A DNA stretch of 64,000 nt. It comes from Candidatus Poribacteria bacterium (GTDB lineage Bacteria; Poribacteria; WGA-4E; PCPOR2b). The notes under the pieces were generated by a model. The model worked only from the letters and a program-made list of their open reading frames with translations, was not told where the DNA came from and did no database searches. Numbering within the stretch: the stretch's first letter is position 1; each line of letters opens with the position of its first letter. The position numbers and the translations under genes were made by a program. Location: assembly GCA_965116925.1 (NCBI GenBank), contig OZ220744.1, positions 480,001 through 544,000 of the forward strand. The letters are read 5' to 3'. Positions 37,410 through 42,086 of the stretch are shown here, in pieces.

Positions 37410-39254
37410 ATGAGAACGTCCTGTCGTCTAACTGCCGTAGCTCTAATCTTGCTGACTAGCATCATGGTGTTAAGCTACAGCGGGAAAGAGATAATGGCAG
37501 CTCCCGAGGTTGATCCTGACAGCGTTTTGAATGTGATCCCGCAAGACACCGTTGGGGTGATTTACATACCGAGCTTACTTGGAATCAATGACGAAATTAA
37601 CGCACTTCTGGCAGAACTGATTCCTGAAGATCCACCGCAAGAACTGCCCGCTCAGATATTAGCTGAGACCTTTGGAGCAGGTTTTGAGACGCTAGAAGAA
37701 TTGGAGGAACTGGGTTTGGATATGCGGAGAAACTTCGCGGTGTTTCTCTCCGGTGTGAATCCGCTGATGTATTCCGCTGCAGTTCACGTTAAAGATGCGG
37801 AAAGCGTTAAACAGCTAATCGAAATGGAAGCGGAAGGCAGTAGTTCTTTTACCCATAACGGTGTGGCATATTATACTACGGGTGAGGAGGGCGCATTTGT
37901 TCTGATGGATGATGTAATGATCTATTCCGGTTCAGCGGAGATCTGTAAAAAGGTCATTGATACCCAGAAAAAGACGATGCCATCAATAGCAGACAATGCC
38001 GATTTTCAATCGCTCGAACTCGATACCACATCTGGCGTAAATGACGTGATTGCTTATTTTGCAATGGATGCGATTGCGGATGCCCTCCGTCCCATGTTGA
38101 CCGAAAAAGCGGAAGAATTAAAGGCAGACATGGAGACAAGTGCCGAAACGGACCCAGAACTCGGGGTTGGCTTGAGGCAGGCTCAAAGTCTAATTGACGG
38201 TGGGCTATGGGTGCTGGATCAGTCAAAAACCTTGACTCTTACCGTGCAGCTCAACGGTACCGATCTCCAGATTTCTCCGTTCCTTAAATTTAAGCCGGAT
38301 AGCGAAATCCAAGCATATATTAGTCAAATGCCGAGAGAACTGACGCACCTCAAATACCTGCCCCAAACTGCATTTCTCAATGGCGAAATGCAATTTCAGA
38401 AGGAGATATTCATTGAGCTTACACAGACAATGATGCAGCTGTTTATCCCTTCGAGTTTGAACGCGGATACAGCGAAGATTGAAGAAGCAACCGAGGCACT
38501 TACTGAAGCCACGAAAAAGTTCTACGCGGGCTTAGGAGATGAGATCGCTTTTTCTGGTAATTTCGGTGGGAGCCTGATGCCTGACATTTTATACATCTAC
38601 GATGTGAAGGATGAAGCACAGGTTAAAGCCACCATGGAGAAAGATTTCACCGGATATTTGGGAGCGACCATGGGACTAATGCAAGCGTTGGGAACCACGC
38701 AGGAATTAACTAGTATGTACAGCGATGTGTCTGCAGGTCCCCCTGAGATTTACAACGGCGTGGAGATTAAGAGCTACATTCTGCCGAATATCAACGCCAT
38801 TTTCGCTGAACTTCCGCCCGGTATGGAAGTTGCTGCCCCAGAGCAGTGGAATGTCTACTATACTATCAACGACGGCAAAATGCTCTACGCAATGGCGGGC
38901 GACGCCCAACCTATAAAAAGCGTACTAGACCGAATGGCGGGTATGGAAGCAGGCTTTGATGAAGCGGCAGGTTACACCAAATTGACCGGGGCGTTGACCT
39001 TGAAAAACAACATGTTCTTTGCGATTTCACCTATCACTACGGTCAAGAGTCTCGTACAGATCTTAGCACAAGTGGATCCAAACTTTGGCATGATCCAAAT
39101 GTTTTTGGTGAACATTCCCGAAACCTACAGCATCGGTATTGCTAGCCAAAATCGGGACAACGGTGTTGCAGGAGAGCTATTTATCTCGCTCGGCGATTTT
39201 AAGGAAATCATCATTATGCTTGTCGGTCTGCAGCAAATGGGAGGAATGCAGTAA
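37410..39254 (+). CDS. secreted hypothetical protein (possibly DUF3352-like)
   Basis: N-terminal signal peptide, AAGGAG RBS, acidic 614-aa body. Family assignment is tentative. Confidence 0.7.
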   Translation: MRTSCRLTAVALILLTSIMVLSYSGKEIMAAPEVDPDSVLNVIPQDTVGVIYIPSLLGINDEINALLAELIPEDPPQELPAQILAETFGAGFETLEELEELGLDMRRNFAVFLSGVNPLMYSAAVHVKDAESVKQLIEMEAEGSSSFTHNGVAYYTTGEEGAFVLMDDVMIYSGSAEICKKVIDTQKKTMPSIADNADFQSLELDTTSGVNDVIAYFAMDAIADALRPMLTEKAEELKADMETSAETDPELGVGLRQAQSLIDGGLWVLDQSKTLTLTVQLNGTDLQISPFLKFKPDSEIQAYISQMPRELTHLKYLPQTAFLNGEMQFQKEIFIELTQTMMQLFIPSSLNADTAKIEEATEALTEATKKFYAGLGDEIAFSGNFGGSLMPDILYIYDVKDEAQVKATMEKDFTGYLGATMGLMQALGTTQELTSMYSDVSAGPPEIYNGVEIKSYILPNINAIFAELPPGMEVAAPEQWNVYYTINDGKMLYAMAGDAQPIKSVLDRMAGMEAGFDEAAGYTKLTGALTLKNNMFFAISPITTVKSLVQILAQVDPNFGMIQMFLVNIPETYSIGIASQNRDNGVAGELFISLGDFKEIIIMLVGLQQMGGMQ

Positions 39255-39321
39255 TTCGACGACACTAGTCTCATCAAGGAGCTGTTAAGTGATATGGTAA
39301 AGGTAGGAAGGAAGAAATGGA

Positions 39322-39364
39322 AGAACGGAAGGTATCAGTTCGTTGATTCGACACCTTCCGTTCT
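39322..39364. terminator. hairpin between convergent genes
   Basis: AGAACGGAAGGT / ACCTTCCGTTCT inverted repeat. Confidence 0.5.
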
Positions 39365-39384
39365 CGCTTAATCGTAGGAATCGC

Positions 39385-39768
39385 CTAATTTGTCGCCGTC
39401 TTTGCGGGAAAACCCGCGTTCGTGACAGCATCGGCCAATTGGACACTAGTGGCTTTGCCTTTTTCCAGTTTAACGATGGCTGTACCATCTGCTTGAGAAA
39501 CATCGGCACTAATCACGCCGGGAACGTTTGTAAGTGCGGCCCGCACTTTGGATACACAGCCACCTCACGTCATCCCATCAACGTTTAGTGTGATCTGTTC
39601 GTGAGCTGCCGGTGCTGCTTCAGACATATCGGTACTTGCAGCGGTTTCAGTTTCCGTAGCTGCGGGTGCTGCTGTCTCAGCTGCCTTTTCCATCTTCTTC
39701 TCTGAAGCACAGCCGATAGCAAATAGAATTGCGACGCAGCAAATTAGTGTCAGTTTTAATATGTGCAT
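39385..39768 (-). CDS. lipoprotein with selenocysteine-containing heavy-metal-associated (HMA, CopZ/MerP-like) domain
   Basis: Lipobox AIGC, Ala/Thr/Glu linker, then ITLNVDGMT-[TGA]-GGCVSKVRAALTNVPGVISADVS...LADAVTNAGF. The TGA sits at the first Cys of the GMxCxxC motif, and the frame stays open for 59 more codons to TAG. Confidence 0.85.
39528..39564 (-). promoter_or_regulatory. bacterial SECIS-like hairpin
   Basis: AAGUGC-GGGCC-GCACUU stem-loop (39548-39532); the G-starting loop begins after 22 nt 3' of the UGA. Confidence 0.7.
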
Positions 39769-39810
39769 TTGGGTTACACCTCCTTTGGAATTGTAATCAT
39801 ATGTCTATCT

Positions 39811-39839
39811 ATTGTATGCGACGATATCGATTTTGTCAA
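39811..39839 (-). promoter_or_regulatory. sigma70-type promoter of the Sec-HMA gene
   Basis: TTGACA (39839-39834), 17-nt spacer containing the palindrome CGATATCG, TACAAT (39816-39811); GGAGG RBS. Confidence 0.75.
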
Positions 39840-39848
39840 ATAAAATAT

Positions 39849-40719
39849 AAATTTTTCAATATAGGAGTTACGCAGTTGAGTTTGTAGTAGCGCAATTCAT
39901 TGCGCGTTCTTCCCTCCCCATAGGAGTTACGCAGTTGAGTTTGTAGTAGCGCAATTCATTGCGCGTTCTTCCCTCCCCCTGCTTGTGGGGGGTAGAGGGG
40001 GGGGACGGGCGATAAATCGCCCTACTATAAACCTTTGTCCCTACTATAGTTGCCCGATTCATCGGGTGTGAGAAACGGTATCCTGCGGTGATGAATCGCC
40101 GAACTACAAGGCTTTGACCATTCAACTGCATAAGTCCTAAAATTTTTCAATATAGAAGTTACGCAGTTGAGTTTGTAGTAGCGCAATTCATTGCGCGTTC
40201 TTCCCTCCCCATAGGAGTTACGCAGTTGAGTTTGTAGTAGCGCAATTCATTGCGCGTTCTTCCCTCCCCCTGCTTGCGGGGGTAGAGGGGGGGGACGGGC
40301 GATAAATCGCCCTACTATAAACCTTTGTCCCTACTATAGTTGCCCGATTCATCGGGTGTGAGAAACGGTATCCTGCGGTGATGAATCGCCGAACTACAAG
40401 GCTTTGACCATTCAACTGCATAAGTCCTAAAATTTTTCAATATAGAAGTTACGCAGTTGAGTTTGTAGTAGCGCAATTCATTGCGCGTTCTTCCCTCCCC
40501 ATAGGAGTTACGCAGTTGAGTTTGTAGTAGCGCAATTCATTGCGCGTTCTTCCCTCCCCCTGCTTGCGGGGGTAGAGGGGGGGGACGGGCGATAAATCGC
40601 CCTACTATAAACCTTTGTCCCTACTATAGTTGCCCGATTCATCGGGTGTGAGAAACGGTATCCTGCGGTGATGAATCGCCGAACTACAAGGCTTTGACCG
40701 TTCAACTGCATAAGTCCTA
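39849..40719. repeat. tandem triplication of a ~290-bp MITE/REP composite
   Basis: Units start near 39849, 40140 and 40430 and are almost identical. TIR TAGGAGTTACGCAGTTGA / TCAACTGCATAAGTCCTA; several GTAG-type hairpins inside. Confidence 0.92.
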
Positions 40720-40779
40720 CAATAATAACATAGTAGTAGGCATACTCCGTATGCCGTGACTTACCGAAAACGGCTTTAT

Positions 40780-40963
40780 CTTGTAAAGCCCAAGCCTTTA
40801 GGCTTGGAGCCATTGGGGCGAAGCCTAGTATCGGGATTCCTGTTGAGTCCCGTAGTTGGGGCGATGGGGTCCCCGATAGGTGTCCGGTTCAATCCACACC
40901 TATCTAAACTCGGCTAACACAGCGTGTAAGAATCCCAATCCTTTAGCTTTGGGAGTACGTCAA
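40780..40963 (+). mobile_element. non-autonomous IS200/IS605-family element (both ends, no ORF)
   Basis: Left end AAAG + hairpin CCAAGCC-TTTA-GGCTTGG; right end GAAT + hairpin TCCCAATCCTTTAGCTTTGGGA followed by GTACGTCAA. Confidence 0.7.
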
Positions 40964-41012
40964 ATATATCCCCGCCGGCCATTGTGCCCCACTTATCTCT
41001 ACCCGAATCGCG

Positions 41013-42086
41013 CTAAACGCCCATCAACTCCCCTCGTAAGCATTCAACATCAACACGAGTACCTCTCCGCGCCGACGTATTACACGCCTCCATCAATATC
41101 CATGTCCCTAATGTGCTTTCCTGTAACCACTCCCGATTTTTGCCGGTGGAGAGTGCATCTGCAAAGGCATTAAATTGGAGACGGTCATCTTCGACCAGTC
41201 CGGGATGGAGGTCTTGAAGCTGGCAGTCTTTAACACATTCACCCTTACGAAAAAGTTGAAGATGTCCCGCGTCTCGTCGAATATCCCCATTTTCTCCGTG
41301 AAAACTCCAATGACCGCTCCAGCCGAATGGATTTGCATGGGAGGCGTTCGTTCCCGTATAGCAGAAAGGTGCACCATTTGGGTATTCCAGCAACGCTTGA
41401 CCACCCGCTGTGCCCCAGACGCCGGTCCGAGCAATATCATGGTCTTCCCGTTGGTGGATGCACGCCGTCACATATTTCGGAAGGCCTTTCGCTGCAACCA
41501 GTTGATCGAGTTGATGTGCGGTGGCGGCGTGAAAGAAGATCCCTTCGACGTAAGCATCCGGATAGCGTGAATTATCTGCACGCCAGAGATTTTGCCGAAT
41601 CCAGAATCGACACTCCCCACCGAGCATGTCGCCGATACCATCCGCCCCACGCAACCACTCACGCATCTTTGAAGCGGCAGGATTCCAGCGTTTATTTTGT
41701 CCCTGTACCAGCATCAGATCGGGATGTGCCTTGCGAACCTTGATAATTTCCCGAAACTCATCCGGCGTTGTTGCAATCGGTTTGACACACAACGTGTGCA
41801 GCCCAAGATTTAGGCTTTCGACAACCAGCTCTGTGTGCACCGGTGTTGAAGCATAGATGAGACATACTTCTGCATGATGTCTCGCCCGCGCTTCCGTGAT
41901 TGTTGTATAGATCCGGTCCCCAAGTCCTTCAGGTACATCGCCCTCCAAAGATCCTACCCCTTCTTGCGCTTCGTCGAGGTTGATATCCACACAGGCGACA
42001 GGATACAACCCCTTGCAGTTGACTAACGCCTGAAGCCGTCCACGGGCGAAATGGGTGCAGCCCACATGAATAGTTGGTATAGCCAT
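41013..42086 (-). CDS. Gfo/Idh/MocA family oxidoreductase
   Basis: VACVD, HTLCVKPIA (EKP-like), QNKRW, HQLD; start at ATG 42086 with GGAGG RBS. Confidence 0.8.
   Translation of the reverse strand: MAIPTIHVGCTHFARGRLQALVNCKGLYPVACVDINLDEAQEGVGSLEGDVPEGLGDRIYTTITEARARHHAEVCLIYASTPVHTELVVESLNLGLHTLCVKPIATTPDEFREIIKVRKAHPDLMLVQGQNKRWNPAASKMREWLRGADGIGDMLGGECRFWIRQNLWRADNSRYPDAYVEGIFFHAATAHQLDQLVAAKGLPKYVTACIHQREDHDIARTGVWGTAGGQALLEYPNGAPFCYTGTNASHANPFGWSGHWSFHGENGDIRRDAGHLQLFRKGECVKDCQLQDLHPGLVEDDRLQFNAFADALSTGKNREWLQESTLGTWILMEACNTSARRGTRVDVECLRGELMGV

Follow-up and report, generated by a model that had tools for sequence, protein, structure and literature searches.

A probable order-wide selenoprotein of the HMA/MerP type encoded across an in-frame TGA in Candidatus Poribacteria

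On the minus strand of the window, which is the whole 64,000-nucleotide stretch of Candidatus Poribacteria DNA analysed here, an open reading frame at 39768..39565 encodes 67 amino acids and ends at the TGA 39567-39565. If this TGA is read as selenocysteine (Sec, U), the frame runs on to the TAA 39387-39385 and gives a protein of 127 amino acids; both the short frame and its continuation, which had been described in a first-pass annotation, were seen in the sequence. The question raised by this locus is whether the TGA is a true stop, a lesion in a decaying gene or a selenocysteine codon, and what the longer product might do. The explanation that joins the observations described below, to which a probability of about 0.85 is assigned, is a selenoprotein of 127 amino acids in which Sec68 and Cys71 make up the soft-metal site of an HMA domain held on an extracytoplasmic lipid anchor, in a place resembling that of MerP. 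The coding features are as follows.

39385..39768, minus strand: full coding sequence of 127 codons and the stop TAA, containing a single in-frame TGA that is taken as selenocysteine
39565..39567, minus strand: TGA codon 68 (U68), putative Sec and the first of the two ligands in the metal site U-G-G-C
39556..39558, minus strand: TGT codon of Cys71, second ligand of the metal site

Conservation of the TGA codon and the transcription unit

The TGA occupies the first Cys position of the motif G-M-T-C-x-x-C, giving the site U68-G-G-C71, and the Pfam HMA profile aligned across it, in agreement with the earlier placing of the TGA on the first Cys of the HMA motif. Cys71 is present in 28/28 aligned family members and is encoded by TGT in all 20 orthologs from the genus. 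A check for sequencing error found no run whose contigs differ at this codon: in the contigs of four sequencing runs, no letter other than TGA occurs at 39565-39567. Furthermore, contigs from the RNA libraries of two studies span the UGA and the hairpin that follows it; the support from these is weak, since contigs are no proof of transcription and a DNA run holds the same contig (the covering contig in runs X6 and X7 is identical to that of DNA run X4 of the same study). Run X13, in which 39281-39523 is without a contig, carries no evidential weight.

When 41 genomes of the order were searched with the read-through protein, each of the 20 genomes of the genus was found to have an ortholog with one TGA, located at codon 68 of 127 in 20/20 and with the same length throughout; the 19 orthologs other than that of the window share 77-93% protein identity with it. 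The close relatives, for which TGC or TGT at this position had been named as the pattern of a nonsense mutation, thus have neither of these codons within the genus. In a sample of the phylum, 55/55 genomes of the order were matched at E <= 1e-9, with one in-frame TGA in 111 of the 117 matches listed, and outside the order one of six genomes was matched, by an 838-aa frame without a stop. A scan of species genomes gave, among its best 80 loci, TGA at the site in the 13 Candidatus Poribacteria loci. Two pattern hits with TGA, L101 and L128, were judged by eye not to be HMA domains and were set aside.

The other genera of the order contributed 24 further TGA members, which came from 15 of 20 loci; the pattern search gave clean members in these 15, and loci L058, L059, L060, L062 and L065 were left out. 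Among the 24 members, 22 are small lipoproteins, frequently in tandem pairs, and the remaining two are HMA domains of a fusion protein (G021). The same loci contain two Cys forms, both in G027 (GMTCGAC and GLECGKC), and Cys stands at the Sec column in these, in P0004 and in P0060. Homologs with Cys and homologs with TGA at this column, for which a search had been proposed, are both present within the order. Each genome sampled from the order has the small lipoprotein, in many cases with two paralogs side by side.

The gene is monocistronic, extending from a conserved promoter to a terminator-like hairpin, and its flanking signals are as follows.

39811..39839, minus strand: sigma-70-type promoter, TTGACA 39839-39834, 17-nt spacer, TACAAT 39816-39811
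39779..39783, minus strand: GGAGG ribosome-binding site, separated from the ATG by 10 nt
39321..39365, minus strand: stem-loop of 17 bp resembling a terminator, with a U/C-rich tract after it, between two convergent genes

The near-consensus promoter and the GGAGG ribosome-binding site reported at first pass were both recovered, the promoter having 11/12 consensus matches. Among the 20 genus orthologs, TTGACA is kept in 18; as the -10 box, 18 have TACAAT and one has TATAAT; GGAGG is found in 17 and the ATG in all. Expression would probably be constitutive, judging from this near-consensus sigma-70 promoter. The terminator-like stem-loop has a folding energy of -26.9 kcal/mol and a z score of -4.83, and none of 200 shuffled sequences folds as well.

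The downstream frame is under purifying selection. The dN/dS ratio is 0.27 for codons 69-127 compared with 0.175 for codons 1-67, as estimated from 190 non-independent pairs. A decaying gene, in which the TGA would be a nonsense mutation or a sequencing error, has nothing in its favour beyond the presence of the stop codon itself, and its probability is close to nil: the identical TGA recurs across the order and in every run examined, and the promoter, ribosome-binding site, start codon and downstream selection are those of a maintained gene, as had been suggested.

Selenocysteine machinery and the hairpin downstream of the TGA

The genome from which the window is derived is a single contig of 6.47 Mb that is 99.1% complete. 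The earlier proposal to search it for selA, selB, selC and selD was followed up, and all four gave scores above their curated cut-offs: tRNA-Sec 76.6 bits (cut-off 47; anticodon TCA according to ARAGORN), selB 373 bits (cut-off 242), selA 607 bits (cut-off 268) and selD 369 bits (cut-off 125). The genes for tRNA-Sec, selB and selA adjoin in one cluster, and selD has an in-frame TGA of its own, followed by a hairpin. TGA terminates 430 of the 1439 open reading frames of more than 400 codons; it is an ordinary stop in this genome, and the genetic code is therefore not reassigned.

A SECIS-like hairpin follows the TGA within the coding sequence.

39532..39548, minus strand: SECIS-like hairpin, with 5' arm AAGUGCG (39548-39542), loop GGC (39541-39539) and 3' arm CGCACUU (39538-39532)

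The hairpin starts 16 nt after the UGA and its loop starts 23 nt after it. The first-pass annotation had drawn a stem of 6 bp, AAGUGC-GGGCC-GCACUU, with a loop beginning with G at a spacing of 22 nt. The hairpin and its G-starting loop stand, and the structure is better drawn with 7 bp, AAGUGCG/CGCACUU, and the loop GGC; the spacing of 22 nt holds for the shorter drawing and becomes 23 nt for the longer one.

The local fold of the single sequence (76 nt) is not significant, with a z score of -1.03 and 33/200 shuffles folding as well, so that the hairpin can be set apart from chance only by comparison across relatives. For this comparison, 42 distinct sequences were aligned over a region that takes in 6 nt on the 5' side of the TGA and 45 nt on its 3' side. 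Without guidance, RNAalifold paired columns 27-32 with columns 36-41 in a hairpin, leaving a loop of three bases, the first of which is G in 42/42 sequences. Across these sequences the seven pairs are formed in 95.6% of cells, compared with 21-51% when the partner is slid, and both partners vary in three of the pairs, 32:36, 30:38 and 26:42. At 32:36, AU stands in 23 sequences and GC in 15, with GU in two and no pair in two; at 30:38, GC stands in 38, GU in three and AU in one, the shift there being a Val change from GTG to GTA matched by a change from Ala to Val on the other side of the stem. The covariation score of 0.226, compared with 0.133 in shuffles, was reached by none of 500 shuffled alignments. 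The hairpin, for which conservation had been named as a check, is thus kept across relatives with compensatory changes. A longer and more stable fold of the window sequence alone, which includes the UGA, was dropped; it is 77.9% paired in the alignment and 447/500 shuffles scored as high.

Part of the conservation of the stem is protein-driven, since much of it encodes Val, Ala and Leu residues that are conserved. A control was provided by forms that share the peptide V-x-K-V-Q-x-A-L: those with TGA form 6-7 of the seven pairs (13 cases) whereas those with TGT or TGC form 4-6 (nine cases), and the mean hairpin energies are -6.5 and -4.0 kcal/mol, respectively. In addition, Val in the stem is encoded by GTG in 41/42 sequences and Ala by GCA in all 38 that have Ala, compared with genome-wide shares of 27% for GTG and 29.5% for GCA. 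This codon preference and the weaker pairing in the TGT/TGC controls argue for a constraint on the stem at the RNA level. Within the genus, the invariance of the hairpin codons says little, since synonymous variation is low everywhere and many other codons are equally invariant.

Bacterial SECIS elements are described in excerpts of a review as having a loop of 3-9 nt, a stem of 4-16 bp and a G in the first two loop positions, at a distance of 16-37 nt from the UGA and with a minimum free energy of at most -7.5 kcal/mol (PMC13188914). Three of the four constraints tested, namely those on loop and stem size, loop G and spacing, agree with the hairpin (7-bp stem, GGC, 23 nt). The energy depends on the segment folded, being -7.2 kcal/mol for the bare 17-nt hairpin and -9.7 kcal/mol for 40 nt with the hairpin enforced, with the published limit of -7.5 kcal/mol lying between these values. 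An Rfam scan of 38500-41500 gave weak chance matches to microRNA families only. On the model favoured here, SelB and Sec-tRNA(Sec) would decode the UGA at codon 68, recruited by this hairpin within the coding sequence.

If the UGA were a true stop, or were read by near-cognate suppression, the product would be either a lipopeptide of 67 residues or a read-through protein carrying Trp or Cys as residue 68, in both cases free of selenium. Public gene calls follow this interpretation. Ten database proteins were examined, of which eight belong to the family and the other two are multi-HMA proteins; three of the eight are cut at the TGA (P0005, P0007 and P0037), three carry Trp there (P0002, P0003 and P0006) and two are Cys forms. 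The expectation that standard annotation would truncate the protein was therefore borne out by the three calls that end at the TGA. The 67-residue product, however, would consist of the signal peptide, the linker and one beta strand, whereas in 20/20 orthologs the frame beyond the TGA has no stop, does not vary in length and is subject to purifying selection. Furthermore, Trp is no metal ligand at an invariant Cys position, and the genome has the Sec machinery as well as the SECIS-like hairpin at this locus. A selenium-free product is accordingly considered very improbable, and the locus provides a clear case of a functional protein lost by standard annotation.

Architecture of the read-through protein and the nature of its site

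The 127-residue protein is divided into three parts.

39709..39768, minus strand: signal peptide with lipobox A-I-G-C20, residues 1-20, Cys20 being the predicted lipidation site
39604..39708, minus strand: linker rich in Ala, Thr, Glu and Pro, approximately residues 21-55, predicted to be disordered
39397..39603, minus strand: HMA domain, residues 56-124, beta-alpha-beta-beta-alpha-beta (PF00403 and AlphaFold2)

The lipobox A-I-G-C20, which had been read as AIGC at first pass, is present; Cys20 is invariant in 28/28 family members, at least 90% of which also have Gly19. An AlphaFold2 model, calculated with 28 family members as input, has a leader helix at residues 4-18. Of the enzymes for lipoprotein maturation, lspA is found in the genome at 110.5 bits (cut-off 73.95), and there is an lgt-like match of 97 bits against a cut-off of 118.9. 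The protein would be exported, its signal peptide cut at the lipobox and Cys20 lipidated. The linker differs among relatives in both length and sequence and has pLDDT values below 50 for residues 21-50, in keeping with the flexible Ala/Thr/Glu linker proposed earlier; its roughly 35 disordered residues would hold the single HMA domain outside the cytoplasm.

The suggested comparison of the read-through protein with PF00403 yielded a near-complete domain, with residues 60-120 spanning positions 1-61 of the 62-position profile at 51.1 bits (E 1.8e-13), above the cut-off of 24.8. In the AlphaFold2 model the block-mean pLDDT is at least 93 from residue 61 and is 79 for residues 51-60. The modelled elements are strands at 56-63, 85-91, 96-102 and 122-124 and helices at 71-80 and 108-117, with U68 in a loop and Cys71 at the start of a helix. 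The positions that are invariant in the 28-member alignment are Cys20, U68, Cys71, Val75, Leu79, Gly84, Val85, Ala114 and Phe120. A Foldseek search placed MerP (PDB entry 1osd; TM score 0.93 of target), plant HMA7 and CopZ at the top, and the sequence scores were 53.7 bits for copper ATPase domains, 46.3 bits for CopZ and 37.5 bits for MerP. In its presumed location the protein resembles MerP, and in sequence CopZ and the ATPase domains.

The same fold could in principle carry a U-x-x-C selenol/thiol redox centre in place of a metal site, for example in an extracytoplasmic reductase or in a selenium or sulfur carrier. This would fit the fusion, in relatives, of HMA(Sec) to a protein that has the haem-binding motif CQGCH (in G021 the fusion also matches Pfam PSCyt1 and WD40), as well as the absence of metal genes nearby. 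However, the closest matches in sequence and structure are all metal-binding HMA domains (ATP7B, CopA, CopZ and MerP), the G-M-T-x-x-x-C loop and the fold are those of a metal site, and there is no thioredoxin-like fold. A redox centre is thus regarded as improbable. In the metal-binding selenoprotein favoured here, a soft metal ion would be bound between the Sec68 selenolate and the Cys71 thiolate, and the protein may serve as a periplasmic metal scavenger or chaperone.

A narrower reading is that of a dedicated MerP equivalent, which would capture Hg(II) in the periplasm with the selenolate raising the affinity and with partners that are elsewhere or absent. A MerP selenoprotein is on record in ocean metagenomes (table in PMC2398784). 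MerP (TIGR02052; PDB entries 1osd and 1afi) is likewise an exported single HMA protein with a G-M-T-C-x-x-C site, functions in the periplasm and is the best structural match; moreover, NF033553, the model for Gram-positive MerP, matched weakly along the whole length (E 0.0022), and a Cys-form lipoprotein HMA in L101 adjoins a frame that appears MerT-like by eye. Several features differ. The protein reaches only 55.2 bits with TIGR02052 against a cut-off of 92.55, and by sequence its matches to copper ATPase domains and CopZ outscore that to MerP; Sec replaces the first Cys; MerP is soluble, whereas a lipobox anchor and a long linker are found here; and MerP is encoded with MerT and MerA, whereas in the 99.1% complete genome no match to MerT and no MerA over the cut-off were found, the best MerA-like protein (389 bits against 454) having no HMA domain. 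MerR-controlled promoters typically have a spacer of 19-20 nt, unlike the 17 nt observed here. A dedicated mercury-capturing MerP equivalent is hence judged unlikely, although less so than a redox centre.

Returning to the broader assignment as a soft-metal HMA selenoprotein, Cu(I) would be a somewhat better candidate than Hg(II) for the bound metal, since the genome has a CopA-type ATPase and no mer genes. The only other HMA domains in the genome are the two on this ATPase, which has CPC and DKTGT motifs. As noted at first pass, the gene stands alone without a mer or cop operon: its neighbours are unrelated to metals and differ between families, and no conserved functional partner was found among them. 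The convergent downstream neighbour encodes a secreted protein of 614 amino acids without a Pfam match, which accompanies the gene at each of the 20 genus loci (in L045 it is cut) as well as in G022, and not further out; other neighbours restricted to certain lineages are multihaem cytochromes (G022 and G023) and a TPP enzyme (family f3).

Relation to known selenoproteins and occurrence in the order

The principle of HMA/MerP-type selenoproteins is not new and has been on record since 2008. The earlier statement that Sec-containing MerP/HMA proteins had been reported from environmental sequences is supported by a table row for the Global Ocean Sampling data, which lists a 'Mercuric transport protein MerP' selenoprotein with two sequences (PMC2398784); as compared by this table row alone, it is alike in being an environmental MerP-like protein with Sec. 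A MerT-type selenoprotein is also listed in excerpts of the literature (PMC9312934, PMC13188914, PMC2398784), and the NCBIfam collection includes a model for a MerT/CopZ fusion selenoprotein, below the cut-off of which the present protein falls. The NCBIfam family NF041115 (UxxU_metal_bind), given in an excerpted source as a 'putative mercuric reductase' with UxxU and two Sec (PMC13188914), is similarly an HMA-type selenoprotein that stands by itself and carries Sec in its metal site. However, it has two Sec (U-x-x-U) rather than the single Sec of U-G-G-C, its 74-position model is without a lipoprotein leader or linker, and the score of the present protein is 57.8 bits against a cut-off of 95.

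Reviews, as far as their excerpts extend, also list a cation ATPase selenoprotein with the same motif, U-x-x-C (PMC9312934, PMC13188914). In that protein the motif lies in the cytoplasmic part of a large pump, whereas the present protein is a free-standing extracytoplasmic lipoprotein. The Sec of the ATPase is taken by us, from its family, to be the first of the metal ligands in an HMA domain. CopZ/Atx1 and the N-terminal domains of copper P-type ATPases (PDB entries 6ff2, 2rml and 7xuk) have the highest sequence similarity and the same fold and site, but these are cytoplasmic and have two Cys, in contrast to the export and lipidation signal and the Sec found here; the CopZ models were all under their cut-offs (NF047957 61.4 against 85 bits, NF033794 47.1 against 95 and NF033795 46.5 against 91). 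The read-through protein was in fact under the cut-off of every named NCBIfam HMA family, including the curated selenoprotein models. A lipoprotein HMA family with U-x-x-C was not found in the excerpted main texts, supplements aside, of PMC9312934, PMC13188914, the BSepDB paper and the SAO preprint. The gene of the window thus very probably encodes an unannotated, order-wide selenoprotein of an HMA/MerP type that has already been listed.

Since the gene is found in 55/55 sampled genomes, the handling of metals with the help of selenium outside the cytoplasm appears to be one of the core traits of the order. The members of this order are uncultivated, sponge-associated bacteria. A wider proposal, which is put forward tentatively and with rather low probability, is that the order has a hitherto undescribed selenium-based extracytoplasmic system for the capture and redox processing of soft metals, with the lipid-anchored HMA(Sec) protein as its core and a haem c-WD40-HMA(Sec) protein as its partner. 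If this were true, the system could capture and redox-process the Cu, Hg, Ag and Cd that accumulate in the sponge host, and the advantage of the selenolate might be that it remains reactive under the oxidising conditions of its compartment. The occurrence of Sec and Cys forms within one order provides a natural pair for asking what advantage a selenolate has over a thiolate when the site binds a metal and is not a redox site. On this proposal, most families of the order would have, in addition to the small lipoprotein, a secreted protein with a haem c motif, a WD40 propeller and a C-terminal HMA(Sec) domain.

Convergent neighbour and upstream repeats of the HMA gene

The lipoprotein HMA(Sec) gene is flanked on both sides by further elements, located in the window as follows.

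37410-39254, + strand: gene for a 614-aa protein, convergent with the HMA gene
39321-39365: 17-bp stem-loop between these two convergent genes
39849-40723: three copies of a 290-bp unit (99% identity), immediately upstream of the HMA gene promoter

The 614-aa protein, which has a hydrophobic, leader-like N-terminal stretch and returned no match in a Pfam search, is encoded next to the HMA gene in all 20 of the loci from the genus (cut in one, L045), as well as in the relative G022. The stem-loop has a folding energy of -26.9 kcal/mol (z -4.83); it was not picked up by the terminator scan, which accepts loops of up to 8 nt and so probably passed over its loop of 11 nt. Within each 290-bp unit, a 59-bp element that contains a palindrome occurs twice. 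Since blastn gave 81 matches to this element across the genome, it is a dispersed intergenic repeat, and the ORFs listed within the array are probably spurious.

HMA proteins in relatives

Elsewhere in the order, other families carry the lipoprotein HMA(Sec) gene as a tandem pair of paralogs, and in family f2 one of these paralogs has the site U-x-S-C-P, with a C-P pattern also found in MerP. Among the best 80 loci of a scan of all species genomes, the only full-length match beyond Poribacteria-titled records is a Cys form with 33% identity, which is immediately preceded by a frame with a C-C motif inside a hydrophobic stretch that looks MerT-like by eye. A second family of HMA selenoproteins (∼530-590 aa) was also observed in relatives, but not in the window's own genome. 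Its members carry a leader, a CQGCH haem c motif and WD40-like repeats, with the HMA domain at the C-terminus. At the HMA site, members from the genus of the window have G-M-[TS]-C-G-A-C, and those from other families of the order have G-M-T-U-x-x-C.

L052, L053, L055-L057, L063, L064, L066, L067: tandem lipoprotein HMA(Sec) paralogs
L101, about 1143-1990: Cys-form lipoprotein HMA, in a record titled Deltaproteobacteria
L172 358-1956, L180-L187: second family, Sec forms
L171 354-2105, L173, L175-L179: second family, Cys forms
L076, 5991 to about 8000: protein of the relative G021 with Pfam matches to PSCyt1 and WD40

Pfam was run for the second family on the G021 relative only. The frame of the G021 protein continues through two consecutive HMA domains and, because each contains its own in-frame TGA, the product would be a two-Sec protein.

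Another selenoprotein and a further candidate in the same genome

Two further frames with an in-frame TGA lie outside the window on the same contig.

G000:C1:6018631-6019551: selD, TGA within T-C-G-U-A-A-K
G000:C1:5117624-5117908: frame of 506 aa, open apart from a single in-frame TGA

In selD the TGA is followed by a hairpin with the loop AGUU, and from these two features selenophosphate synthetase is itself a selenoprotein. The 506-aa frame weakly matches the MerA model, which is of the pyridine nucleotide-disulfide oxidoreductase type (24.3 bits), and may encode another.
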